DNA of 64,000 nucleotides from Gammaproteobacteria bacterium (lineage in GTDB: Bacteria; Pseudomonadota; Gammaproteobacteria; DSM-16500). Positions 3,899-64,000 of the stretch are shown in pieces (within the stretch, counting starts at the first letter, position 1; every line of letters begins with the position of its first letter). The translations under genes and the position numbers were made by a program. The notes beneath the pieces were generated by a model. The model saw only the letters and a list, made by a program, of their open reading frames with translations, had not been told where the DNA came from and ran no database searches. Where the stretch lies: the NCBI GenBank assembly GCA_013287765.1, contig JABDDD010000001.1:8842-72841 (forward strand). The letters run 5' to 3'.

Positions 3899-6205
3899 TT
3901 AATGTACATCATGATCCACCGTTTCTCCAATGGCAAATTTTAATTTATTTTCCTCAACTGTCACAATCACATGACCGCCTTGATTGAGTTTGCCAAATAA
4001 TAATTCTTCTGCCAGCGGACGTTTAATTTGTTCTTGAATTAAACGTGCCATCGGCCGTGCACCCATTTTAATATCATAACCATGCTCTGCTAACCATTTT
4101 CGCGCGTCATCTTCAATTTCTAGCACAACATGTTTAGGCTCAAGCTGTACTTCCAATTCCATCAAGAATTTATTAACAACATATAAAATCGTTTTCATAT
4201 CAAGCGGCTTAAATTGAATAATTGCATCAAGTCGATTACGAAATTCTGGTGAAAAAATCTTATGAACCGCTTTCATTACATCCGTTGTGCTCTTTTCATC
4301 AGGCGTAAAACCAATCGATGTTTTATCAAAAGAATCAGCACCTGCATTGGATGTCATAATAAAAATAGTGTGACGAAAATCTGTTTTTCGACCATTGGTA
4401 TCTGTTAAAGTACCATGATCCATCACTTGTAATAATAAATTATAAACATCAGGATGCGCTTTTTCAATTTCATCTAACAACACCACAGAATGCGGATGTT
4501 TATTCACAGCTTCTGTCAGCAATCCCCCTTCATCATAGCCAACATAACCAGGAGGAGCGCCAATTAAACGAGACACCGTGTGGCGTTCCATGTATTCAGA
4601 CATATCAAAACGAATGAATTCTATGCCTAATATTTTGGCGAGTTGTTTACAAACTTCTGTTTTTCCAACCCCTGTTGGGCCTACAAATAAGAAAGAACCA
4701 ATGGGCTTTAACGCATCACGCAATCCAGAACGTGATAAGCGAACAGCCGCTCCTAAAATTTCAATCGCTTCATCTTGGCCAAAAATCATCATTTTAAGAT
4801 CACGGGTTAAACTTTTTAATAATTCACGATCAGACGTCGACACATTCTTTTCAGGAATTCTTGCAATTTTTGCGACTACTTTTTCAATGTCAGACGCTTC
4901 AATTATTTGATGACGACTCGCTTCTGGTAGTAAATATTGATAAGCACCGACTTCATCCACTAAATCAATTGCTTTATCGGGCAATCGACGGTCTGAAATA
5001 TATCGCGCTGATAATTTAGCAGCCGCTTCTAATGATTCGTCAGTATATTTGACATGATGATGTGATTCAAAACGACTGCGTAACCCTTTTAAAATATCAA
5101 TCGTTTGATCAACAGTCGGTTCTTTGACATCAATTTTTTGAAAACGTCGTGCCAACGCATGGTCTTTTTCAAAAATACCGCGATATTCTTTATAGGTTGT
5201 TGATCCGATACAAGTCAGATCCCCTGACGCTAACAGCGGTTTTATTAAATTAGAAACATCCATTAAACCACCCGATGCAGCCCCTGCACCGATAATAGTA
5301 TGGATTTCATCAATAAATAAAATAGCGCCTTTTTGCGTTTTTAATTGATGCAAAACGCTTTTTAACCGTTTTTCAAAATCGCCGCGATATTTAGTGCCTG
5401 CCAATAAACTGCCTAAATCCAAAGAATAAATCATCGCGTCATCTAAAATAGCAGGGACTTTCTTTTCAATAATAAGTCGTGCCAACCCTTCGGCAATCGC
5501 AGTTTTACCAACACCTGCTTCACCCACTAAGAGTGGATTATTTTTGCGACGACGACAAAGCACTTGAATGGTTCGTTCAATTTCATCTTCTCGTCCCACT
5601 AAAGGATCAATCATCCCTAATTTTGCCCGTGCATTTAAATTCATGGTGAATTGCTCTAAGGGGCTGCCACCACCTTCTGGGCTGTCACCACTTTCACCTT
5701 CTTCCATATAATGCTGAGAACCAAATTGATCTTGTTGTTCGCCTGGTCGTGGTTGTTGTACAGGGATACGTGCTTTTGTTGAGCCATGCGCAATAAAATT
5801 AATAACATCTAAACGGCTCACATTTTCTTGACGAATTAAATAAACACTTTGACTTTCTTGTTCGCTAAAAATAGCCGCTAAAACATTAGCGCCAGTGACT
5901 TCTGTTTTTCCAGAAGATTGCACATGAAAAACAGCACGTTGCAAAACCCGTTGAAATCCTAAAGTGGGTTGCGTATCTCGATCATGAATATGCATAGGAA
6001 TAATAGGTGTGGTGCGATCAATAAACTCGATTAAATTATTGCGTAATCGACCCAGATTGGCACCGCAGGCTTTTAAAACTTCTACGGCGGCAGAGTTATC
6101 AAGCAGCGCAATTAACAAATGCTCCACTGTCACAAATTCATGACGTTTAGCACGTGCTGCTTTAAAAGCTAGGTTCAAAGTATATTCAAGTTCTTTGTCT
6201 AGCAT
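3899..6205 (-). CDS. clpA: ATP-dependent Clp protease ATP-binding subunit ClpA
   Basis: 768 aa with an N-domain and two AAA+ modules (GEAGVGKT and GPTGVGKT Walker A motifs). It lies immediately downstream of clpS. Confidence 0.9.
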
Positions 6206-34136: not shown

Positions 34137-35984
34137 TTGAACAAGAGCTCGATTATCATGTTTTTTTTAGGCGTTTTAGCTTTATTCCAAATAGTATTTT
34201 TACCTGGTTTTTTATTATTAACCGCGCTGCGTTATCGAGAAGGTTTTTTAAAAACGGTGCTATTATCATTTGGTTTAAGTATAACAATTAATTATTTCTT
34301 AATTTTAACCCTTACTTTTTTGCATCTTTATACTCCTGCGACCTTAATCAGTCTCTACTGCATAGAATGTCTTATGCTTTTATGCATGATTTCTTTTAAA
34401 AATTTATTAACTCCAACACATTTTAGTTTAAAACCCATCAGCACATTTTTTTCTTTTACTGAACAATCCTCTTTAATAACAATCAGTAAATTAGCCGGTT
34501 TTTTTGCCTTTGTTTATTTAATTTGTTTTTATAGTTTTTATGATGATGCACCCAAATCTGTTTTTTCTTCATGGGATGCGATCCTAAGCTGGAACCCCTG
34601 GGCACAGCAATGGGCGCAAAATATTTTACCGCCGCATACTTCTGATTATCCGCAGCTTATTCCAATCAATGTTTCTTTAACTTATCTAATAGTCGGAAAT
34701 CAACTAGAATTATTTGGGAAAATATTTTTTTATACTTTTCCTTTCGCCATTCTGGGTATTTTGTGGGATTTAGCTAATCGCAATAAGCAAGCCGGTTTTT
34801 TTTGGGGCATGGTATTTTTTATCGTATTTTTATTGAAAATTTTTGGCAATCAAAGTATTTCTGGCTATGCAGATATTCCTGTGGCTTCAATGTGTTTATT
34901 CAGTCTTTATTTATTATTCATAGAAAATACCCCACGCACAGACTGCAAAAAAAGTATTTTTTTAAGCGTCATACTCACTATGGGTGCTATTTCCACTAAA
35001 CAAGCTGGCCTTTTAGTCATGGCAGCCTACCCAATTTTTTTATATCTTTTTTTATCAAAAAATTTTCCATTTTATTCAACTACACAAAAAATAAAAATTA
35101 GTCTATTATCACTATTACTTATTATTGCCTCTCTCATCCCTTGGGAATCCTATAAATTATTTTTATATTATCATCATTTGGATTATTCGAATTCGCTCCC
35201 ACTACTAGAAGGCGCAGGTGATCAAGTCATGCGGCATAATTACTTTTTAAAAGTAAAGCATAGCCTACATTTACTTTTTCGTTTAATGGATAAAAACTTT
35301 CTTGTCATTATAGTACCTATTTTAATTATATTAAGTTGTTATTCTGCAAAAAAAATGCGACCTATCGCGCTTTGGTTAGTACTTCCCATGTTTTTAATGT
35401 GGGCGTTATTCTTTGGTTATGATGTTCGCAATATTGCTTACCTGCTGCCATTTTTAAGTATCGTCTTAGGATTTGGTTTCCAGTTTTTATTGCAATTTTT
35501 AAGTCATAATCGATTTGTTTATTTTTTAAAAACTCATGGAATCTTGGCGTATACTTTACTAAGCGTTTTGATCACACTGGGAGGATTATTAAAATTAAAT
35601 CATACTTATAAAAATAAAAAACTCATCAATCAACAATTCATAGCAATGAAACAAATAGGTATCCCCCAAATTAATGATTTTATGTATACCTATATTAATA
35701 AAAATCCCTTAGCCGGAATTATTATGACAAATTATGGGCCACTTTGTTATTTAACATCTTTTACCTCCAATTGCTTTTATAGACCCAATCTCTTATCTTT
35801 GGATCTTTTTTTAAAAAATCTAAGTGAGCTAAAACCTAGCTATATCGGTTTATTAACAATCAGTTCAAAAACAAAAGCAATTAAAGAATATGTGGCAAAT
35901 CACCCAGAAAAATTTGAAATGATTGAAAGTCATGTCGCTTATTTTAATCTTTATTACATTCGAGGAAGTTATGAAAAAAGTTAG
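34137..35984 (+). CDS. polytopic membrane protein, putative GT-C type (ArnT/PMT-like) glycosyltransferase
   Basis: 615 aa with more than 10 TM segments. Its 3' end overlaps a GT2/GtrA gene, an arrangement like GtrB/ArnC plus a GT-C transferase. No catalytic motif was verified. The start is uncertain (TTG 34137 or ATG 34158). Confidence 0.4.
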   Translation: MNKSSIIMFFLGVLALFQIVFLPGFLLLTALRYREGFLKTVLLSFGLSITINYFLILTLTFLHLYTPATLISLYCIECLMLLCMISFKNLLTPTHFSLKPISTFFSFTEQSSLITISKLAGFFAFVYLICFYSFYDDAPKSVFSSWDAILSWNPWAQQWAQNILPPHTSDYPQLIPINVSLTYLIVGNQLELFGKIFFYTFPFAILGILWDLANRNKQAGFFWGMVFFIVFLLKIFGNQSISGYADIPVASMCLFSLYLLFIENTPRTDCKKSIFLSVILTMGAISTKQAGLLVMAAYPIFLYLFLSKNFPFYSTTQKIKISLLSLLLIIASLIPWESYKLFLYYHHLDYSNSLPLLEGAGDQVMRHNYFLKVKHSLHLLFRLMDKNFLVIIVPILIILSCYSAKKMRPIALWLVLPMFLMWALFFGYDVRNIAYLLPFLSIVLGFGFQFLLQFLSHNRFVYFLKTHGILAYTLLSVLITLGGLLKLNHTYKNKKLINQQFIAMKQIGIPQINDFMYTYINKNPLAGIIMTNYGPLCYLTSFTSNCFYRPNLLSLDLFLKNLSELKPSYIGLLTISSKTKAIKEYVANHPEKFEMIESHVAYFNLYYIRGSYEKS

Positions 35985-44778: not shown

Positions 44779-46884
44779 ATGTTATCTCCAGACTATCAAG
44801 CTATGTCTTCAGATATAGAGCCTTCTTTTGAGTTACGTCCCATCATCGCTATGCATAATATTAACATTTTCTTCGGAAAATTTTGTACCGACGCAGTCGA
44901 TTATTGCCCTGAAAAAATAAAAAAAACAGTTTCTGCACTAGCAACAGGTTTGACCGATATTTTTAGCGCTATTTCTAAAGGATTATCGGCTTTTGTTACC
45001 CATCGTCATGGAAAAACTCAGTGGGAAAAACCACTGCTTAATGCTTTAATGATTCCGGTTAATGTCGGCTTAACAATCGCTCATCTTTTGCCTATCAGTG
45101 CACGCGGATGGGGCATCCCTTGCTTGCCTGCGCTGATGGTATTTACTAGTCCAGGTTTTTTATTTTACGATGCAATCATCCAACCTAACAAATGGTACCG
45201 CATTCGAAATGGTATCGCAGGCGTTTTATCTGTGATTGCAAGTGCCTATGCTTTTTTATTCGTGATGGCTTTAACAGTGCGCTTACAAAAAGGTGAATTT
45301 GAAACTACTTTAAATCCGCTTGAATGCTTCAATCTTATTTTACAAACTCCTTTATCTCGTTTACAAAAATTATTAGCAGCCACGATGGGCTACACGGCTG
45401 CCTTTAATGTCACTTTATTTATTCGTGATTTTATACTGCATCAATTTCAATATAGTTTAAATAATTTTATGGCAGAGATTAAAACACGCTACCAAGAAAA
45501 AGCGCTTGATCATATTGATCGACTTTATAAACAATATGAAGATGATACTCAAAATGATTTATATCTCGTAAAAATAAGTGAAATTGAAGCATTAGAACAG
45601 GATCTACAAGAAAAAATAGCGTCCGGAAAAAATTGGGATTACTATGGTTTTTCTCTGCAACTTGTGGAAGAAAGCATGAAATTCTCGGCTGTTGCCTTTG
45701 AGTGGCCTACTAGAATAACGGCATCCTTTCCACTAGTCCAAAGTGCTTTATTAGCAAATAACTTATTAAGCGAAAGACAAGGAACAAATTATCTGACTAC
45801 GACAGGAGAACCCAAAAAAGCAGAAGAGAAACCCCTATCGATTATTAAAGATAATTTAAACCCACACCCCCGCAGTGTATTGGTTGAAAAAATAGCTCAA
45901 CGCTTTGGATTATCAGACAAAGAGGATGATTTTATTTTACACGCCTCAAGCGTAAAAAATACAGATTCATCTGAATATACAGATGCATCACTTTCTTTAA
46001 TCAAAAATACTTATCTTTCAAGCCCGCTTCGCTTAATTTTTTTTACTTTAAAAGGATTTATCACTAACGATCCTGACCCTGCACCGATTGCTATGTTACA
46101 CTACGATCGAAAAGAGATTTATTTGAAAGCCATCAAAGCAAACTTTATGGGGAAATTGCTGCCTTTACCATTAATGCCTACTAATCCCAATGATTGTCCT
46201 CGCAATTTTTTTGATGAAGAAAAATATTATAAAGCACATGATGATCAGACCATCAAGGAGATGTTGCAAGGCATCTTCAACATTGATTCAAATTCAAAAA
46301 CCATTTCATTTGAGCGAAAAGCAAATCTATGGAATCAATTTTTTTATTATTTATTAACAAACCCATCCCCCGCTATAACACCTGACGATCTAAAACAAAA
46401 TTTTTCTCAATTATCTGCCAGAGAAAGAGAAACACCCATCAGTACTCGACGAGATTTTCCAAATAAATCTGCTCCTACATCTCCGACTACTAATCGGTCT
46501 CTTGTCAGTTCTAATAAAAAAAGGGTAGACGTGAGTGACCAACACTCAGACATTGGGCATGACTATAAGTTTCATTTTCATTCAAACTCTGCAAGCAGCA
46601 CACCTACCGGAAGAATACGTAAAAATAAAAGCGTGCCAAATATGCCAGGGACTCAGACAGACCAATTAAGTGCGCAGGCGTTTCAAAGTATCCCCGCCTA
46701 TTACACTCGCCTATCGGAAGTGCACCAAACATTGTTTCATGCAGCCCAAGCCACGCCTACACCTTCTGGAAAAAATTATTCTTTATCATCATCATCTTCT
46801 TCTTCATCATCTTCTTCTTCTTCAACTTCTTCTTCAACTTCTTCAACTAGCCATATGACTCGATCAAGAAGCAAGACTCGCTAA
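44779..46884 (+). CDS. hypothetical membrane protein with a C-terminal poly-Ser tract (effector-like orphan)
   Basis: 701 aa. The N-terminal third has several TM segments. The C-terminus is ...LSSSSSSSSSSSSSTSSSTSSTSHMTRSRSKTR. Confidence 0.45.
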   Translation: MLSPDYQAMSSDIEPSFELRPIIAMHNINIFFGKFCTDAVDYCPEKIKKTVSALATGLTDIFSAISKGLSAFVTHRHGKTQWEKPLLNALMIPVNVGLTIAHLLPISARGWGIPCLPALMVFTSPGFLFYDAIIQPNKWYRIRNGIAGVLSVIASAYAFLFVMALTVRLQKGEFETTLNPLECFNLILQTPLSRLQKLLAATMGYTAAFNVTLFIRDFILHQFQYSLNNFMAEIKTRYQEKALDHIDRLYKQYEDDTQNDLYLVKISEIEALEQDLQEKIASGKNWDYYGFSLQLVEESMKFSAVAFEWPTRITASFPLVQSALLANNLLSERQGTNYLTTTGEPKKAEEKPLSIIKDNLNPHPRSVLVEKIAQRFGLSDKEDDFILHASSVKNTDSSEYTDASLSLIKNTYLSSPLRLIFFTLKGFITNDPDPAPIAMLHYDRKEIYLKAIKANFMGKLLPLPLMPTNPNDCPRNFFDEEKYYKAHDDQTIKEMLQGIFNIDSNSKTISFERKANLWNQFFYYLLTNPSPAITPDDLKQNFSQLSARERETPISTRRDFPNKSAPTSPTTNRSLVSSNKKRVDVSDQHSDIGHDYKFHFHSNSASSTPTGRIRKNKSVPNMPGTQTDQLSAQAFQSIPAYYTRLSEVHQTLFHAAQATPTPSGKNYSLSSSSSSSSSSSSSTSSSTSSTSHMTRSRSKTR

Positions 46885-55951: not shown

Positions 55952-56028
55952 GCGCCCGTAGCTCAGTTGGATAGAGTATCTGGCTTCGAACCAGGTGGTC
56001 GGGAGTTCGAATCTCTCCGGGCGCGCCA
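55952..56028 (+). tRNA. tRNA-Arg (anticodon UCG)
   Basis: The body matches the preceding tRNA-Arg except at 4 positions. The anticodon loop is CT-TCG-AA; 77 nt. The island integrase gene starts 46 bp downstream. Confidence 0.85.
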
Positions 56029-56073
56029 ACTAAGTAAAATAAATCAATAACTTATAGCAAGCCAATCCAAGTT

Positions 56074-57087
56074 TTAATAAGCCACTGAAGATGAGTGTAG
56101 GGAAAACGTCACATTCACTCTAGCAGCCGCTTCTTTTAAATGATCACTACTCAAATGCGCATAACGTAGAACCATTTCAAAACTTGTCCATCCACCCAAT
56201 TGCTGAAGCTCTTGTAAAGAGGTTCCATTCTGCACGTGCCAACTCGCCCATGTATGGCGCAAATCATGCCAACGAAAGTTTTCGATATGCGCTCTCTTCA
56301 GTGCTTTTTTCCAAGCTTTAGTATTACACTCAGCTATAGGGTTATTCCCGTAGACAAAAACAAATTGCGAATGCTTTCCTTTCTGCTCTTGCAATACTTC
56401 TATTGCAACATCATTTAAGGGAACAGGAATTGCCTTTTTAGTTTTTGCCTGATCAGGATGGATTAAAGCATGCCTCTTTACTAAATCAACATCGCACCAT
56501 TGTAAATCTGTAACATTCGATTTTCTAAGCCCTGTAGCTAATGAAAATCTAGCAAGAGCTGAAATGTGCGGAGGAAGCTCCTGGATAAGACGAGCTGCCT
56601 CATCAATAGTCAACCACCTTATCCTTTTGGTATCTTCTTTACGCATACGTATTAGAGGCGCTTTTTCAATCCAACCCCACTCCCTTTCTGCCTTCCGTAA
56701 AATCGCCCTCACTATTTCTAGCATGCGATTAACACTAGCATTTTTGACTCCTTCCCTTGATTTTTTTTCTGCTATTTGATCAACAACATCACGGGTTATT
56801 TGACGCAAGGTATAACATTTTAAATGCGGATCGAGCCATTTTAAATGTAACTTATCATCCACTAAACTACGCTTATGTTGTGATTCAGCAAGCCAACGAA
56901 GGACTGCCTGCATCCATACAATTTCAGGCTTGACGTCAAGATATTGGTTTTCCCACATCTCCGCCTTTATCTTGTCATGAAATTTTTGTGCATCTAATTT
57001 GCTGCTAGTCCCAGTACTTCGTTGTATTCTTTTTCCACTGTGGTTAATATCAACCCACCAAATATTTTTTCTTTTGTACAGTGCCAT
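56074..57087 (-). CDS. int: P4-type tyrosine integrase
   Basis: MALYKRKNIWWVDINHSGKRIQRSTG arm-binding N-terminus. Catalytic residues appear in ATGLRKSN (Arg), WHDLRHTWASW (H-x-x-R) and LGGWTSFEMVLRYAHL (Tyr); 337 aa. Confidence 0.85.
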   Translation of the reverse strand: MALYKRKNIWWVDINHSGKRIQRSTGTSSKLDAQKFHDKIKAEMWENQYLDVKPEIVWMQAVLRWLAESQHKRSLVDDKLHLKWLDPHLKCYTLRQITRDVVDQIAEKKSREGVKNASVNRMLEIVRAILRKAEREWGWIEKAPLIRMRKEDTKRIRWLTIDEAARLIQELPPHISALARFSLATGLRKSNVTDLQWCDVDLVKRHALIHPDQAKTKKAIPVPLNDVAIEVLQEQKGKHSQFVFVYGNNPIAECNTKAWKKALKRAHIENFRWHDLRHTWASWHVQNGTSLQELQQLGGWTSFEMVLRYAHLSSDHLKEAAARVNVTFSLHSSSVAY

Positions 57088-57302
57088 ATTTTTCTCCTAT
57101 CATTTGCTATGACACCTTGTGACTTTTTAGCGACATTAGCATAAAGCGATCGCAAATAATCAGCAAGATCATCTTCTCGAAAACACCAACATTTTCCCGG
57201 CTTAGCTCCAGGAACTTCGCCACTAATTACTTTTCTTCGTAACCCTTCGGGAGTCATTTTTAAAAATGCGGCAGCTTCTTTAAGATCGAGTGTTTTCATC
57301 AA
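56994..57302 (-). CDS. excisionase/AlpA-like helix-turn-helix DNA-binding protein
   Basis: MKTLDLKEAAAFLKMTPEGLRRKVISGEVPGAKPGKCWCFREDDLADYL is a MerR/excisionase-type HTH. Its 3' end overlaps the integrase start by 94 nt. Confidence 0.55.
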   Translation of the reverse strand: MMKTLDLKEAAAFLKMTPEGLRRKVISGEVPGAKPGKCWCFREDDLADYLRSLYANVAKKSQGVIANDRRKIWHCTKEKIFGGLILTTVEKEYNEVLGLAAN

Positions 57303-57474
57303 AGCTTACCTGCTGATTTTTAAGTAATCGCTTTAATAATTCATCACGAAAAATTTTTATATGCTTAGGTGCTTCGATACCTATTCGAATTCCATTTACA
57401 TCATTGAGGACAATGACTTTAATGTCATTGCCAATTGAAATAGATTGGCCGACACGCCGATTAAGAATTAACAT
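57280..57474 (-). CDS. island-encoded CsrA paralog
   Basis: MLILNRRVGQSISIGNDIKVIVLNDVNGIRIGIEAPKHIKIFRDELLKR aligns along its whole length with the canonical CsrA at 55411. The start is set at ATG 57474. It overlaps the excisionase-like ORF start by 23 nt. Confidence 0.8.
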   Translation of the reverse strand: MLILNRRVGQSISIGNDIKVIVLNDVNGIRIGIEAPKHIKIFRDELLKRLLKNQQVSFDENTRS

Positions 57475-57622
57475 ACATACTTCCTTATTTTCCAATTATT
57501 TTAATGTTATTTAGTGTTTTATTCTTATTAAACAATAAGAAAATGAATGATACTATCTGTATACTATTAGTCAATACTTTTTGTATTATTCTATTTATAA
57601 TTATATGTATTAATTATTAATT

Positions 57623-58774
57623 TTAATATTTTAATTTATTAGGCATATCTTGGGATAAACCGAGAGATTGAGATAAACTTCTATTTCGTTTGAAAACACT
57701 TTGTGAAGCAAGGCCATACTTCTGATCTTGTTGATTAGGATGCGCAAAGCCAGGAACAACAACTTGATTCTGTAGATCAACAATTTTCTGTTTTAATTGT
57801 TTTGTTTCAAATTCGGCTTTCTTTTTCCCATGAATAAGAGCCTGCAATTGACTATCATATTGCTTTAGATTCCGTAAAAACTGCGTTTGCTTACATATTA
57901 ATTCTTTTGGTCGTCCTGTTATAATATTCATTAAGCTAGAAATATCTCTTTTTTGAATATAATGAAATACAGCAACTGAAAAAATAGCAAACATACTACC
58001 TATAATCCACCCCACTGGACCTGCAACAAGCATAGCGCCGCCAAAAAGTATGAGCAAGCTATTACTCATTAAAAATCCTGAGCCTGCAGACAAAACTACA
58101 TTAATCCCTGTCATAACCCGCTTCACGCCCTTTTGGACTGAAGTTTGTTTATAACATTGCACTAATTTTGTCTGTTTTTTTTTGACATCTTGGTTAAATA
58201 AATTAATTGTACTTTGAAAATAAATATAATCATTAGCACAATAACGATCTGAATGTTGATTAGACAACACAGACAGCTTAATTTTTTTTAATATTCCCAG
58301 CTGTTGTTGATATAACTGAATAATAGATTGCATTTTAAGGGTTGATATCCCGAGCATCCTTTTAAATCTTCCAACATCATAGACCATACTTAACACGCCT
58401 CCTATTACAGCACTAACTATTCCGCAAACCAGTGAAACAGGATGCAACATGCCTGGAATAAGAGTTAACAAAGTATCGCATAATGAAAAGCCGCCTGTTG
58501 CTACAATCAAAGGATTAATAAGTGAGGCTATGTAGACAAAAATCTTTTTTGTGGTAGATTCTTTTTTAATATTAGAATGTTTTTTACTTTTAACATTTGA
58601 CTGAAGCAAAGCGAGTGTCGCTTGCATAATAGCTAATTTATGGTTTTCAACCTTAAGTTTTGAATTATGATCTAATCTTGTATCATAATCCTTTTCTATT
58701 TTAAGAATACATTGAAAATATTTATTTAATGTCTGGACATTACATTTATTAAATATATTATCTTGCTTCATCAT
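57623..58774 (-). CDS. hypothetical membrane protein with two hydrophobic hairpin regions and a coiled-coil tail
   Basis: 383 aa. Hydrophobic blocks are IFVYIASLINPLIVATGGFSLCDTLLTLIPGMLHPVSLVCGIVSAVIGGVLSMV and VMTGINVVLSAGSGFLMSNSLLILFGGAMLVAGPVGWIIGSMFAIFSVAVF. No known motif. Confidence 0.45.
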   Translation of the reverse strand: MMKQDNIFNKCNVQTLNKYFQCILKIEKDYDTRLDHNSKLKVENHKLAIMQATLALLQSNVKSKKHSNIKKESTTKKIFVYIASLINPLIVATGGFSLCDTLLTLIPGMLHPVSLVCGIVSAVIGGVLSMVYDVGRFKRMLGISTLKMQSIIQLYQQQLGILKKIKLSVLSNQHSDRYCANDYIYFQSTINLFNQDVKKKQTKLVQCYKQTSVQKGVKRVMTGINVVLSAGSGFLMSNSLLILFGGAMLVAGPVGWIIGSMFAIFSVAVFHYIQKRDISSLMNIITGRPKELICKQTQFLRNLKQYDSQLQALIHGKKKAEFETKQLKQKIVDLQNQVVVPGFAHPNQQDQKYGLASQSVFKRNRSLSQSLGLSQDMPNKLKY

Positions 58775-58782
58775 ATAAAAAT

Positions 58783-59655
58783 TTATCGCCCCAAATAATT
58801 CACAGTTATTTGTTCTCGGCTATGACCAAGCTCTTCGGTTAAAGTCATACGCGCTTCATAATCAATTTGTTTTTGTAGAGATGTAAGCTGAGAGGCCTTA
58901 GACCCACCATTAATAGGTGCTTCCCAACCAGTTAATTCTTTATATCGCCTTTGAGCATAGGCATGGCGAAGACCATGAAGATTTTTAAGACCTGCACGGA
59001 GTACTTGTTTGTCATAAATAGAACGTTGCTGAATATAAGATTTTTTTATAGGGATCAGTGATAAACCTTTAGAAAGTAATATTTTTTTTGCTTGCTCTAA
59101 CCAGAAACGTTGTTCATCGGTTAAAATGGGGATATACCTGCCTCTTCCTCCTTTACACCAGGAGTCATCTAAAACTAGATATTTACCTTTATCTGCAAGC
59201 CAAGGTTTTATTTTTAAGGCTTCCTCGCGACGCAAGCCAAATACTCTTTGCAATTGCAATGAAACTTGCACATGGATATTACTGATTTTCGAAAAATCAG
59301 GATCATAGAGAGCACGATTATTCGTTGGCACATAGCGACGTCTGCCCAAATTAAGTTTTTTATTACTTGGCACAATATTTTTTTTATTAATTTGCACGCA
59401 TAAATACCGTAATACTGAAGTTCTATTTTTAATAGTAGAAGTTTTTAACTCTTTTTTTTGCCAAAATTTAATTATTGCAAGGATATGCTTTTCTTTAAGC
59501 CCTCGTATATCTCGTAAACCATATCCTTGGGTTATCAAATCATCAGCAAATTTATACAAAATATTTTTTCTATCATGCTGAGTAGCATAAGAACCATCAC
59601 GGTTATGTTTTAAAGTTTGATAAATTGAACGCTGTAAATCATGACGGATACCCAT
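58783..59655 (-). CDS. second tyrosine recombinase (integrase-domain protein)
   Basis: FGLRREEAL (Arg), KGGRGRYIP (Lys), HGLRHAYAQRRY (H-x-x-R) and GHSREQITVNYLGR (His...Tyr); 290 aa. Confidence 0.65.
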   Translation of the reverse strand: MGIRHDLQRSIYQTLKHNRDGSYATQHDRKNILYKFADDLITQGYGLRDIRGLKEKHILAIIKFWQKKELKTSTIKNRTSVLRYLCVQINKKNIVPSNKKLNLGRRRYVPTNNRALYDPDFSKISNIHVQVSLQLQRVFGLRREEALKIKPWLADKGKYLVLDDSWCKGGRGRYIPILTDEQRFWLEQAKKILLSKGLSLIPIKKSYIQQRSIYDKQVLRAGLKNLHGLRHAYAQRRYKELTGWEAPINGGSKASQLTSLQKQIDYEARMTLTEELGHSREQITVNYLGR

Positions 59656-60177
59656 TGTTACTTTTTATAAAATTTTAACCCTTAAACGGCTTGTCAAATG
59701 ATAAGTGTTAAGCGTCTCAATCTTTAGCGCCGTGCGACAAAAGATCGCAATTGATATTGCAAAGAGACGAGATATTAGGGTTTGTTAAATTTTAATAAAA
59801 ATAATTTCCTCCATATAAACAGGTTAATAATAGATATCATTTTGCTCAAAATAACTCAGGTTTAAGATTGAGAATTTCTTGCATAAAGTGAAATAAAAAA
59901 AACAGGTTAAATTAAATTGAACGATTAAAAATTCAATGTTGCGAATATAAGCATGAACCATTTTGCTAGCGATCTGAGTTTCATCATGCCATGCAGACCT
60001 TGCCTGTGGTTTGCGTCGTTAAGGCTCGACTGTATTTATAATGCTACAAAATTTATTGAAGAAATACAATGGTTTTTTAGATAAAAATTTTATTTAATTT
60101 TATAGTCATCACGACAAAAAAGTGAGGTTTATTTAGAAAATTTATTGTTTTTAATAAGAAAATTTTGCTACCATGAC

Positions 60178-60219
60178 CCGCGTCACTACAGACATCTGCG
60201 ATGTCTTCTAGTGACGCGG
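60178..60219. repeat. GC-rich imperfect hairpin in an AT-rich intergenic region
   Basis: CCGCGTCACTACAGACATC-tgc-GATGTCTTCTAGTGACGCGG forms 7-bp and 11-bp paired segments around a small internal loop. No T-run follows it. Confidence 0.6.
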
Positions 60220-60306
60220 AGCAGCTTTGCAATATAACTGATAATATTCTTCCAATAATGCTGATATCATATTAAAATATTATTATTTTAATATGGAAAT
60301 AAAAAT

Positions 60307-60855
60307 TTGAATAATTTTAATTTTTTAAGCTTTTTCCTAGGATTAGCGCCCTCGATCTTCATTATCTACCTTACTGATGTTTCTTCAAAAAAAAGAGAGT
60401 TAAAAAAACAAATTATAGATATATATAAATTAAGCTCAGAGTTATTAAATGAAATTAATTTATTTTTAAAAACGCAAAAATTTATTTGTGAACACTATGA
60501 AGAATATCGCGAAAGAGAATATGCAGGACGTGGGTTTGAACCTTTAGAAAACGCTGATTCTTTAATCAATTTAAGAAATAAAAATTTTGCCGATTTTTTC
60601 GCAGCTGAATGGCTAGATAAATTTTATTATTTTTTTGCTTTATGTACTATTTCATTCCCAAAACTAACTAATGATTTAGATGAATTGCATAAATTGATTG
60701 AAGATATTTATGTAGTAAAAGAAATATCTTCAATAGAGGATGAGCCTCAAGAATTTTACAATTATATAAATGAAAAAATTATTCAAAAATTCAATTCGTT
60801 ACATGAAAAAATACGAAAAGATATTACTTCCAAATGCATATGGAACCCTGTATAA
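60307..60855 (+). CDS. hypothetical protein with an N-terminal TM segment (TTG start, weak call)
   Basis: A 182-aa ORF in very AT-rich DNA that ends 28 bp before the first CRISPR repeat. I recognise no motifs. Confidence 0.3.
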   Translation: MNNFNFLSFFLGLAPSIFIIYLTDVSSKKRELKKQIIDIYKLSSELLNEINLFLKTQKFICEHYEEYREREYAGRGFEPLENADSLINLRNKNFADFFAAEWLDKFYYFFALCTISFPKLTNDLDELHKLIEDIYVVKEISSIEDEPQEFYNYINEKIIQKFNSLHEKIRKDITSKCIWNPV

Positions 60856-60883
60856 TTCTCAACAGTCAAATGCCCTCTATAGG

Positions 60884-61308
60884 GTTGTAGTTCCCTCTCT
60901 CATCAGCCCCCGAACGTTATAATCATTAAACACATAGAAGAAACTAGTAGTCGGTTGTACACCCCGGAACGTTATAATTAAAAGCACGCACACCGTAGTG
61001 ATGAGTGAGTTGTAGTTCCCTCTCTCACCCCGGAACGTTATAATGCTACATATAAAATTGTGAGTAGTGGTACGGTTGTAGTTCCCTCTCTCACCCCGGA
61101 ACGTTATAATGTTATGGTTGGAGAAGTGACTGAGGCTCCTGTTGTAGTTCCCTCTCTCACCCCGGAACGTTATAATTTATATAAGTGAACTTTGTGTCCG
61201 CATCTAGTTGTAGTTCCCTCTCTCACCCCGGAACGTTATAATAAACCTAAGAAAAAATACTACTTAATGCTGGTTGTAGTTCCCTCTCTCACCCCGGAAC
61301 GTTATAAT
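60884..61308 (+). CRISPR. CRISPR array 1: 7 repeats (5 perfect 36-bp repeats plus 2 degenerate at the left end) and 6 spacers of exactly 30 bp
   Basis: Consensus GTTGTAGTTCCCTCTCTCACCCCGGAACGTTATAAT occurs at 61009, 61075, 61141, 61207 and 61273. Degenerate copies lie at 60884-60923 (40 bp, with a TCAG insertion and one substitution) and 60954-60978 (25 bp, with an 11-bp deletion). Strand orientation is assigned by analogy with the Neisseria meningitidis II-C repeat. Confidence 0.9.
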
Positions 61309-61370
61309 CAACTAGCGACAAGTTAATGATTTTAATATATTTTATCTTAATTTGGCGCTGTTTTTTCATC

Positions 61371-61707
61371 TTAAAACAAGAGCAATTGACTAGCATTTAC
61401 CTTTTTCTCATTAAATTTACGGGTACCCACTAGCAACCTCATACTAGCAAACTGTTTTTCGGTGATTTGCAAATAACGCACCGAACCTTCTCTCGTCTTT
61501 CTAGTCCTTACCTGCCGAATCATAGGGTTCGACTTTTCCTCAACGCTCACAACCATTACTCTTAACAACAGCTGCTTGAGGTGGTTTGAAACCTGCTCCT
61601 GAAAGCCGATTTCGAAGGGTCTGCCTTCATCTTCTATAAAGCTTAAAGTTTAGCTTCCTGCTGCTAATACTTGTCCCTCGTAATCCGCAGCGCACTATAA
61701 TGTTCAT
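61371..61707 (-). pseudogene. cas2: cas2 remnant (type II-like), disrupted by at least two frameshifts
   Basis: The C-terminal frame reads ...[52 protein letters not shown]. From memory, this matches the type II Cas2 C-terminus (S. pyogenes ...[33 protein letters not shown]...). A middle segment in another frame reads [18 protein letters not shown] (GF...Q..V pattern). The N-terminal ATG at 61707 is in a third frame and stops at 61627. The span is 337 nt, which is not a multiple of 3. Confidence 0.6.
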
Positions 61708-61811
61708 TATCGATCACTTAATAAGCGTGAATTTATTTATTATTCTTTTTGTTAAAGTGCCTATTGTATAATATGTAATCTATTTAATAAATGTAAACGA
61801 AAACACTTTTT

Positions 61812-63023
61812 TTATTTAATATTATTAATAGATTTTTTTAATTCTTTAGCAAATGCTTTATTTGGATTATCTCTAATATATTTTTCAGCAATTTGGTATC
61901 GTATTTGATCGTTTGATGCTTCTTTTAATTGTTGAGCAGTATTTAACGTAATGTTGCTAGTAAACAACCAACGTACATTTAATTTAAAAAAACTATATCT
62001 TGAGTGGCCAATATCAATATTTAGTAAATTGTTTTTGAAATTTTTGTATTGATCCATGGCATTATTTAAAGTTGCTTTTGTTAACACCGACATTGGCACA
62101 TTTGATTTCTCTTCTATATCATCGCAAGATAATTTTTCGCTGGGAGCCACTAAATTATTATATTTATCAACACAAAATTTTATTGCTTCTTTTAATGATG
62201 GTCTTTTTTTAGGATTGACATCAATCATCTGAGAATAAAGACTTTCTAATCTATCTTCTGCAAGTATGTCCCCATCAAACCCTGAACCAAAATGTTTCCA
62301 ATAAAGAAGCCAATCTTGAGAAAATTTCAGAAGTTGTCCTAAGGAATAAACATCTTGGCTTGGATCCGCAGGAATTTTAGCTGCTAATTCTGGTGGTAAA
62401 TGCCATGATTCCTTTGCCCACTTTCCTGATGTCAAATCCGTTTTTGAGTTTAAGTTATTTTTTAATTTTCTAGCGAGTCCGAAATCGCAAAAAAATATTT
62501 TTCCGTTTTTATCCATGCATAAATTTGCGTCTTTTATATCCCCATGTACAATTCCGTGTTTGACATGTAATTTCTGCGCTTCTTTTAATATAGAAATATA
62601 AAATTTTAAAAATTCTTTAAAATTTGCAAACTTAGGTTTGTTATCTCTTACGAAGATTGTTTTATTTAAACTTGGCGGTAGTTTCTTCATTAATAGATAA
62701 ATATTTGCTTGATCATTTTTATCAACTTTTCCTATTCCAAGGTACAATTTATTTAATTCCGCTTCATGCTCAATATCTGCTATTTCCTCAGGAGAAAGAA
62801 TTCTTCCACTCTCGGAGATCTTTTTTACAGCAGTTTCTACGTCTTTTATGGTTTTGAAAAGACTAACAATCCCGCATGCTCCGCTTCCATAATCATCATC
62901 ATTTTTCAAACTAATGGTTGATTCATCAATATAAAATGATGAATCCCTATCGATTCTTAAATTTTCTTTTTTCTTTTTGTAATCTTGACTGTCTTTACTT
63001 ACATATTGGAAAGATGATTGCAT
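61812..63023 (-). CDS. eukaryotic-like (Hanks-type) Ser/Thr protein kinase with an uncharacterised ~100-aa C-terminal domain
   Basis: Gly-loop GSGACGIVSLFK, beta3 Lys in AVKKI, catalytic loop HGIVHGDIKDANLCMD, DFG in FCDFGLAR, PPELA (APE-like), and DVYSLGQLL; 403 aa. Confidence 0.8.
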   Translation of the reverse strand: MQSSFQYVSKDSQDYKKKKENLRIDRDSSFYIDESTISLKNDDDYGSGACGIVSLFKTIKDVETAVKKISESGRILSPEEIADIEHEAELNKLYLGIGKVDKNDQANIYLLMKKLPPSLNKTIFVRDNKPKFANFKEFLKFYISILKEAQKLHVKHGIVHGDIKDANLCMDKNGKIFFCDFGLARKLKNNLNSKTDLTSGKWAKESWHLPPELAAKIPADPSQDVYSLGQLLKFSQDWLLYWKHFGSGFDGDILAEDRLESLYSQMIDVNPKKRPSLKEAIKFCVDKYNNLVAPSEKLSCDDIEEKSNVPMSVLTKATLNNAMDQYKNFKNNLLNIDIGHSRYSFFKLNVRWLFTSNITLNTAQQLKEASNDQIRYQIAEKYIRDNPNKAFAKELKKSINNIK

Positions 63024-63053
63024 AGGAAATTTCCCCCTTATTAGTTTCAGGAA

Positions 63054-63086
63054 ATTATAACAATATAATATTAAGAGAATATTATG
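63054..63086 (-). promoter_or_regulatory. candidate PmrA-box promoter of the kinase gene
   Basis: The minus strand reads cATAATATT-ct-cTTAATATT-atattgt-TATAAT. That is two 11-bp-phased half-sites resembling the Legionella/Coxiella PmrA element (cTTAATatT-N2-cTTAATatT), placed 7 bp upstream of a perfect -10. An AAGGGGG RBS and ATG 63023 follow. Confidence 0.45.
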
Positions 63087-63206
63087 TAATATATAAAAGT
63101 TTTTAATTATTTGATTTTATTTGATATTTTTGTTTAAAAAATTATTTTCGATAATGAGCATTATGATAGCAATGGATAGCTGTATAAATAATAACATTGT
63201 AAAAAA

Positions 63207-63512
63207 TCAAATAGATGATTGAGCTTGATGGCGAACAAAAACTTTAATTTTCACGTGCTTACGCTTTTTTTCTTCTTTATAGAGATCATATTGCTGTTGT
63301 AAATTAAGCCAACTCTCAGGTGTAGTTGAAAAAGCTTTACCAAGTCGAATAGCCATGCCAGGGCTAACGCCAAACTTCCCGTTCACAAGCTCAGAAAGAG
63401 ATTTACGAGACACCCCTATTCCTTTAGCTACATCAGAAATAGTTAATTCAAGTGGTTCAAGATATAACTCTTTTAATATTTCACCAGGATGTGGTGGATT
63501 ATACATATGCAT
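63207..63512 (-). CDS. higA: HigA-family antitoxin (XRE HTH)
   Basis: MHMYNPPHPGEILKELYLEPLELTISDVAKGIGVSRKSLSELVNGK..GVSPGMAIRLGKAF is the typical HigA antidote sequence. It lies downstream of higB. Confidence 0.85.
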   Translation of the reverse strand: MHMYNPPHPGEILKELYLEPLELTISDVAKGIGVSRKSLSELVNGKFGVSPGMAIRLGKAFSTTPESWLNLQQQYDLYKEEKKRKHVKIKVFVRHQAQSSI

Positions 63513-63538
63513 ATTTTATCCTTTGTTAAACATTTATT

Positions 63539-63817
63539 TTAATGATAGTCAATATAATCAACATCGTAAGCATTCTCATTTTTAAAACGAAATATCACTC
63601 GCCAGTTTCCATTAACTTTGACAGACCAGTAGTCTTTTTTATCTCCTTTTAAGGGGTGTAAATTTGAGCCTGGAAAGTCCATGTCTTGTATATCAACGCT
63701 AGTATTAAGTTTAGCAATTATCAGCCTTAACTTTGTCATATGTTTAGGGTTAATTTTGGCAGATTTTCCTTTTAAGAAAAACTGCTCTAAACCCTTATGC
63801 TTAAAATTTATAATCAT
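63539..63817 (-). CDS. higB: HigB-family toxin (RelE/ParE superfamily, plasmid maintenance killer)
   Basis: MIINFKHKGLEQFFLKGKSAKINPKHMTKLRLIIAKL...LHPLKGDKKDYWSVKVNGNWRVIFRF is the typical HigB pattern. Toxin-first gene order is characteristic of higBA. Confidence 0.85.
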   Translation of the reverse strand: MIINFKHKGLEQFFLKGKSAKINPKHMTKLRLIIAKLNTSVDIQDMDFPGSNLHPLKGDKKDYWSVKVNGNWRVIFRFKNENAYDVDYIDYH

Positions 63818-63822
63818 AGCTA

Positions 63823-63851
63823 AATGTAACGTATTACGTGACGAGTGTCAA
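63823..63851 (-). promoter_or_regulatory. candidate sigma70 promoter/operator of higBA
   Basis: The minus strand reads TTGACA-N17-TACATT, with an ACGTA-n-TACGT palindrome in the spacer. The -10 ends about 6 nt before the higB ATG and no SD is visible, so the transcript would be leaderless. Confidence 0.3.
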
Positions 63852-63933
63852 TTATTATTTATTTTTTTGCTTACTTGAGATAAATTAAAAATGTGGTGCA
63901 GCATAAAAAATATACCATATAAATTAAGATTGA

Positions 63934-64000
63934 GTAACGGTTCCCTCTCTCACCCCGGAACGTTATAATAAAACAATTATAGCGTAAAGATCAGGATGGG
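63934..64000 (+). CRISPR. CRISPR array 2 (first repeat plus one spacer; continues beyond the window)
   Basis: GTAACGGTTCCCTCTCTCACCCCGGAACGTTATAAT at 63934-63969 matches 32 of 36 consensus positions; positions 3-6 at the 5' end have diverged. A 30-bp spacer follows, and the last base of the window (G at 64000) is where the next GTTGTAG... repeat would start. Confidence 0.6.

Follow-up and report, generated by a model that had tools for sequence, protein, structure and literature searches.

We analysed a stretch of 64,000 nucleotides (nt) from a gammaproteobacterium (Gammaproteobacteria bacterium, GTDB lineage DSM-16500; assembly GCA_013287765.1, contig JABDDD010000001.1, positions 8,842 to 72,841 of the forward strand), referred to below as the window. 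[quoted passage not shown] From left to right this segment consists of a repeat array (array 1), the 3′ end of a cas2 gene, a fragment of a group II intron, a protein kinase gene, a higBA toxin-antitoxin pair and one unit of a probable second array (array 2). An earlier reading made from the letters of the window without database searches, the sequence-only reading, had proposed a decayed Neisseria-type locus in which cas1 and cas9 were replaced by the kinase and higBA genes.

Array 1 and its repeat family

Array 1 (60884-61308, + strand) comprises seven repeat units and six spacers, and its cas-proximal end is the right one. Units R3 to R7 are identical 36-mers (GTTGTAGTTCCCTCTCTCACCCCGGAACGTTATAAT) that follow each other with a period of 66 nt. 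The remaining two units are damaged: R1 (60884-60923) has an insertion of 4 nt and one substitution, and R2 (60954-60978) has lost 11 internal nucleotides. The six spacers, each exactly 30 nt long, are all distinct and occur in single copy in the window. We counted as a CRISPR array three or more almost identical direct repeats with a constant period and, between them, unique spacers of one length. Array 1 shows all of these features, well above what chance would give, and is a true CRISPR array. The 36-nt repeats, the 30-nt spacers and the mutual identity of five repeats had already been reported in the sequence-only reading, and all were confirmed.

A candidate for an eighth, strongly decayed unit (R0, 60821-60856, + strand) is weak and was recognized by eye only. 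Its GGAAC..TATAAT ends 27 nt before R1, which is the expected spacing, and it overlaps the stop codon of an open reading frame (ORF) at 60307-60855. Counting R0, array 1 has eight units, three of them damaged.

Relatives of the repeat were collected by scanning 8-kb genome tiles with a degenerate pattern that covered the first 19 and the last 6 nt. The repeat family was found in at least 118 tiles, mostly of Beta- and Gammaproteobacteria. Among the matches listed, the closest repeat (tiles L024/L092, Accumulibacter metagenome-assembled genome, MAG) is identical at 34 of 36 positions, and dozens are identical at 32-33 of 36. The Neisseria repeat is identical at 26 of 36 positions, which bears out the likeness to the N. 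meningitidis repeat noted in the sequence-only reading; the Neisseria sequence given there occurs verbatim in three Neisseria tiles (L064, L076 and L117). The CGTT that precedes the terminal TATAAT is a private variant of the window repeat, found in none of the matches listed. The Rfam model CRISPR-DR34, whose consensus is the Neisseria repeat, aligned over its full length to every full unit (28.3-29.4 bits, E 0.005-0.011). Judged by these comparisons, the repeat is a member of a very widespread proteobacterial II-C family.

The cas content of the tiles was scored for cas9, cas1 and cas2. Genes for Cas9 were present in at least 53 tiles, for Cas1 in at least 60 and for Cas2 in at least 67. The arrangement is uniform: in 67 of 67 cas2-bearing tiles among the matches listed, cas2 and the GTTGTAG reading of the repeat lie on opposite strands, with the array downstream of cas2. 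The gap between cas2 and array in these 67 tiles is mostly 61-65 nt, with a mode of 63. In the intact relatives cas2, cas1, cas9 and the trans-activating CRISPR RNA (tracrRNA) gene occupy the next ~4.8 kb, and relatives whose tile extends past cas9 have a strong anti-repeat 30-130 nt beyond the cas9 start. This agrees with the layout published for II-C loci: a minimal cas9-cas1-cas2 operon, an anti-repeat that in most cases lies upstream of cas9 and, in N. meningitidis as well as C. jejuni, an array transcribed antisense to the cas operon (PMC3737331).

The cas2 stub and the adjoining intron fragment

On the minus strand, facing array 1, a 3′ stub of cas2 was identified by the NCBIfam model TIGR01573 and by DNA homology. 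It spans 61371-61490 and consists of the last 39 codons of the gene, ending in LLLF, and the stop codon. The stop codon is separated from the first repeat by 62 nt (61309-61370), a gap in the leader position, whose length matches the spacing in the relatives and whose sequence is unconserved among them. With this gap, and with the same orientation in all 67 relatives, the earlier proposal that the cas2 remnant converges on the array as in II-C loci is supported.

TIGR01573 matched the 65-codon ORF at 61371-61568 with E=4.8e-5, over profile positions 44-95 of 96, and a Pfam search of the stub and of both remaining frames gave no Cas2 match. Homologs of the stub ORF include the 102-amino-acid (aa) Cas2 proteins of Clostridium II-C loci (45-62% identity), and its last 39 residues are 55-77% identical to Cas2 proteins adjoining arrays of the same repeat family. 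Homology to cas2 at the DNA level begins sharply at 61490/61491, in more than 10 independent loci or alignments, and continues to the stop codon (61371-61373); up to 5 further nucleotides, to 61495, may be derived from cas2. The gene is thus not intact: the last 39 of ~102 residues are left and the first ~63 codons are gone. No full-length Cas2 with the same C-terminus turned up when the NCBI, JGI and Logan protein sets were searched with the stub.

The sequence-only reading had described 61371-61707 as a frameshifted cas2. Its identification as cas2 holds for 61371-61490, whereas neither the frameshift nor the start at 61707 was upheld, since 61491-61697 belongs to an intron. A full-length, frameshifted cas2 can be ruled out because the ~200 nt upstream of the stub are intron sequence, and the apparent frameshifts arise from the fusion of the intron fragment to the stub. 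The ORF at 61371-61568 (minus strand) is a chimera of intron-derived codons and the 39 Cas2 codons. It corresponds to a public 61-aa product (P0001), and this 'hypothetical protein' is really an intron-Cas2 chimera.

The intron sequence (61491-61697, minus strand) is a 5′ fragment of ~205 nt that represents part of domain I of a group II intron. The domain I model RF01999 (group-II-D1D4-2) scored 112.5 bits at 61510-61628 on the minus strand, with the full model covered, and a blastn search against introns on 280 plasmids gave an alignment running from 61662 down to 61488-61493. The intron of a Candidatus Megaera polyxenophila plasmid (NZ_CP104167.1) is 84% identical over ~150 nt of domain I. 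In the pairwise alignment GTGCG at 61697 shares its column with the GTGAG start of the Megaera intron, and the distance from the GUGNG start to the RF01999 motif is equal in the two. The Megaera intron runs on for ~1.9 kb, reaching a domain V/VI match and a decayed reverse transcriptase gene, whereas the window copy comprises the first ~205 nt only. RF00029 found no domain V/VI in the window, and tblastn with the ORF of the Megaera intron found no reverse transcriptase there.

At the junction (~61491-61495) intron nucleotide ~205 is joined directly to cas2 codon ~64. A possible 3-nt microhomology, CGA, is common to the intron relatives and the likely cas2 sequence. The junction is present in an independent assembly: Logan contig L001 (SRR8432291) is identical to 61466-63818 of the window, junction included, and Logan contig L002 to 55999-61038. 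In exact look-ups of single proteins, HigB and the 61-aa product had no match, while the kinase, HigA and the integrase led to short Logan contigs whose DNA, apart from a 24-nt tail of L001, is that of the window. Abortive retrohoming yields 5′-truncated intron copies. The copy in the window is truncated at its 3′ side, which argues for a deletion product and against abortive retrohoming. Insertion of the intron into cas2 can also be ruled out: the 5′ exon does not come from cas2, and what abuts the stub is the 5′ part of the intron, not its 3′ end.

To find the other components of the locus, every ORF from four close relatives was used as a tblastn query, a 1137-aa Cas9 and several Cas1 proteins among them. 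Across the whole window the only matches were to the arrays and the cas2 stub, and no fragment of Cas9 or Cas1 was found in the 64 kb; the longest ORFs of the window are those of AlaS (868 aa) and MutS (855 aa). Within the window cas1 and cas9 are thus missing where they would be expected, as the sequence-only reading had stated. The tracrRNA anti-repeat for this repeat would take the form of an imperfect complement of GTTGTAGTTCCCTCTCTCACCCCGG with a terminator after it. A scan of both strands, a check which that reading had suggested, detected no such element in the window outside the arrays. The best score was 28/72, inside an ORF and in repeat orientation; on the complementary strand the best was 22/72, compared with 38-50 in the relatives just beyond the cas9 start. 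A 31-nt partial likeness to the repeat (TTGCCTCTCTCATCCC..GGAA..TATAA) at 35124-35155 (+ strand), inside the ORF at 34137-35984, scores 28/72 and was taken as chance.

Probable loss of the cas genes and alternative explanations

The segment is probably the relic of a canonical II-C locus, beside tRNA-Arg in a genomic island, that lost its machinery by one deletion. The 62-nt gap, with array 1 on one side and the last 39 cas2 codons on the other, preserves the exact geometry of intact loci of the same family. The assignment to type II-C is well supported by sequence comparison, and the decayed Neisseria-type locus proposed earlier is borne out by the 34/36 repeat match, the conservation of the Cas2 stub, the geometry, and the absence of cas1, cas9 and tracrRNA from the window. 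The intron would have lain beyond the cas operon. A single illegitimate deletion of ~6 kb, with endpoints at intron nucleotide ~205 and inside cas2, would then have taken out the entire effector and adaptation machinery, and the kinase and higBA genes would be genes originally on the far side of the intron that were left next to the deletion.

To judge from its gene content, the relic cannot acquire spacers in cis, because Cas1 and an intact Cas2 are lacking, and cannot carry out interference in cis, because Cas9 and tracrRNA are lacking. The II-C arrays of N. meningitidis and C. jejuni have promoters inside the repeats (PMC5965381). In the window the full repeats end in a perfect TATAAT, at the position of these repeat-embedded promoters, and short CRISPR RNA (crRNA) precursors could be made from array 1. 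Such precursors would be useful only in combination with Cas9 and tracrRNA of the same repeat type supplied from elsewhere. A promoter consensus scan found no more sites than in shuffled sequence. The comparison of spacers with phage and plasmid sequences, also suggested in the sequence-only reading, gave no target: the seven spacers had no match in phage or plasmid collections at E<=1, their 3′ 22-mers had no exact match in IMG/VR, and no self-target was present in the window.

Several points weigh against a canonical II-C locus truncated by one deletion. The deletion is deduced from one genome, and no related genome with an intact version of this locus was found. The 5′ boundary of the intron fragment is set by the GTGCG motif and one pairwise alignment. 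The CRISPR-DR34 scores lie below the gathering score of 35 bits, so that the repeat is a relative of this family which misses the curated cut-off, and an exact 30-mer of the repeat had 0 matches in genome_contigs and 0 in metagenome_contigs. The repeats have no −35 element or TG extension, and the promoter scan left them unflagged, so that their transcription is proposed by analogy only.

The main alternative concerns array 2. At the right end of the window (63934-64000, + strand) a repeat unit (63934-63969) is followed by one 30-nt spacer and a final G. The first 7 nt of the unit (GTAACGG) differ from the repeat, the other 29 are identical, and the orientation is that of array 1. A second array of the same repeat had been announced at 63934; one unit and one spacer of it are seen, and the rest falls outside the window. 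The unit can be ruled out as a tracrRNA anti-repeat by its repeat orientation and 29/29 identity. Terminal units with 3-12 diverged nucleotides at the 5′ end and an intact 3′ part occur in ~20 of the 55 related arrays whose far ends could be read (for example L080 AATAAAGTTCCC..., L074 CCGGTTACTCCC... and L061 TACGCAGCTCCC...). Since the unit at 63934 has this terminal form and the orientation of array 1, it is probably the cas-distal end of a second array that runs rightward out of the window. If array 2 has cas genes of its own, the canonical geometry would place them on its other side, outside the window.

Array 1 might then be alive, as an orphan that depends in trans on a complete cas9-cas1-cas2-tracrRNA set with the same type of repeat, encoded either just beyond array 2 or on a different contig. 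This would imply a two-array II-C system and one duplicated, truncated cas2 end. We regard it as less likely than not. The five identical repeats of array 1 and the exact match of the 29 shared nucleotides in the array 2 unit speak for it, as does the terminal shape of that unit, by which canonical geometry places the cas genes of array 2 to the right. The ends of Logan contig L001 also bear on this question. L001 stops at 61466, exactly 30 nt into the cas2 stub. This end corresponds to one unique base followed by 30 shared bases from ~61496, a rule that also describes the end of L002 in R3. It fits a second context of the cas2 3′ segment and suggests that such a context exists in those reads. 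The other end of L001 departs from the window sequence at 63819, a position 1 nt upstream of the higB ATG, and continues as a 24-nt tail of 15 nt followed by a 9-nt inverted repeat end. This tail implies a repeat-spacer unit (spacer start AAAGAAACACAATGG) that is one more than the window holds. Both ends may instead stem from chimeric reads.

On the other side, the searches of the NCBI, JGI and Logan protein sets yielded no full-length Cas2 with the C-terminus of the stub, and three of eight array 1 units are damaged. Orphan arrays are common in the family: in ~15 of the at least 118 tiles an array or a solo repeat has flanking sequence to spare but lacks cas2. That this genome encodes a working Cas9 set is rather unlikely. 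It is unlikely that array 1 is a left array which lost its cas operon through the intron-anchored deletion, is still transcribed from the repeat promoters, and is used in trans by Cas9 and tracrRNA encoded beyond array 2.

A different explanation starts from the genes that fill the space held by cas genes in the relatives. On the minus strand, 61812-63023 encodes a Hanks-type (eukaryotic-like) Ser/Thr kinase of 403 aa. It matches Pkinase (PF00069; 65.5 bits, 6.6e-18), and its translation shows the glycine loop, VAIK-type Lys, HxD and DFG motifs as GSGACG, AVKK, HGDIKDAN and DFG. Its best solved relatives are eukaryotic MKK7 (2.6e-9) and, more weakly, PknB (1e-6). The higA antitoxin gene (63207-63512, minus strand; TIGR02607, 104.6 bits with a cut-off of 47.7; HTH_3) lies downstream of the higB toxin gene (63539-63817, minus strand; PF05015, 84.4 bits). 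The toxin-first order with a gap of 26 nt is that of a type II toxin-antitoxin pair. A promoter-like site, TTGACA-17-TACATT, precedes higB at 63823-63851 (minus strand) as a consensus match only.

The sequence-only reading had these genes overwriting part of the CRISPR locus. The genes themselves were confirmed by PF00069, TIGR02607 and PF05015; their replacing or overwriting cas genes was not. In such an event an inserted kinase-higBA cassette would have overwritten cas1 and cas9 and perhaps taken over the site in the role of an effector or addiction module. A general likeness of the kinase to the PADLOC defence-kinase models PD-T4-6 (8.9e-13) and mad6 (3e-16) fits this idea, yet the matches cover the catalytic core only and their scores, 46-57 bits, are no better than the generic Pkinase score. 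Neither repeats nor mobile-element ends were found flanking the kinase-higBA block, the break in cas2 adjoins the intron fragment and not the cassette, and the block has its own promoter-like site. The one detectable homolog of the kinase (P0142, 38% identity) sits among tyrS, lysS, prfB and prfC in another genome, a MAG. Among the matches listed, no related CRISPR tile contains a kinase homolog, and higBA-like genes occur in two. Overwriting by a cassette is, on this evidence, a distinctly improbable origin. A CRISPR-linked kinase-higBA module was rejected in view of the housekeeping context of the homolog and of the related tiles listed, which lack a kinase homolog and of which two have higBA-like genes. 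The two tiles with higBA-like genes are L045, with two HigA-like matches at 1958-2498, just beyond the far end of the array, and L054, with a higBA-like pair at 1231-1798.

An assembly artefact, with a chimeric join at the intron-cas2 junction or where higB adjoins array 2, is very improbable: misassembly is a well-known effect of CRISPR repeats and introns and the Logan contig does leave the window at 63819, but L001 and L002 reproduce 61466-63818, including the junction, and 55999-61038 exactly, the tail of L001 ends only 9 nt into a repeat and looks like a dead-end chimera instead of a real path, and 63819-63851 of the window holds a plausible higBA promoter.

Genomic setting and comparison with other loci

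The relic sits in an AT-rich island of 26-35% GC, compared with ~40% GC in the segment of array, cas2 and intron. The island follows tRNA-Ser, tRNA-Arg and tRNA-Arg genes and contains two integrase genes, in agreement with the tRNA island described in the sequence-only reading. Upstream of the island lie mutS, recA, alaS and an aspartokinase gene. RecA homologs are MAG proteins at 85-92% identity, and the best of them (P0022) comes from another organism whose gene order differs; the lineage is accordingly placed as gammaproteobacterium-like.

Some further elements of the window deserve mention. A GC-rich hairpin of 40 nt at 60179-60218 (+ strand), with an almost perfect stem of 18 bp and a small internal loop, lies in AT-rich intergenic DNA; it has a folding energy of −34.2 kcal/mol (z = −6.4 relative to shuffles), occurs in single copy in the window, and could be a terminator or a mobile-element end. 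A 21-nt AT-rich inverted repeat (58740-58760 and 61776-61796, 95% complementary), which may be due to chance, encloses the second integrase gene, the ORF at 60307-60855, array 1, the cas2 stub and the intron fragment. No protein family was found for the ORF at 60307-60855, nor was a Pfam or NCBIfam family found for two ORFs among housekeeping genes, 44779-46884 (+ strand, 701 aa) and 34137-35984 (+ strand, 615 aa).

Loss of cas genes and orphan arrays are common. As a degraded member of a very common II-C family, the relic has little import beyond its own genome. One detail is noteworthy: the intron-cas2 deletion junction survives with a few bases of uncertainty and reveals the way in which the effector module was lost. 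If a Cas9 set did lie past array 2, the locus would offer a clear natural example of a type II orphan array whose origin is known. Were array 1 also used in trans, it would be a traceable, recent example of the birth and upkeep of such an array.

[quoted passage not shown] Compared with them the relic is without cas9, cas1, the first ~63 codons of cas2 and tracrRNA.

Among type II orphans is CRISPR2 of Enterococcus faecalis, with repeats that agree with those of a further array in the same species or genome (PMC4580645). Array 1 resembles it in being a type II array without complete adjacent cas genes and in having a repeat that matches the unit of a second array. Whereas CRISPR2 is of type II-A, the relic is II-C and keeps a cas2 stub and a deletion junction, by which the loss can be traced.

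A third case, within the repeat family itself, is found in Snodgrassella sp. B3882 (tile L017), where two arrays in the same orientation (651-884 and 5658-5891) lie 4.8 kb apart. No cas2, cas1 or cas9 match was found between these arrays and no cas2 stub was detected; the intervening genes, small unannotated ORFs, differ from those of the window.

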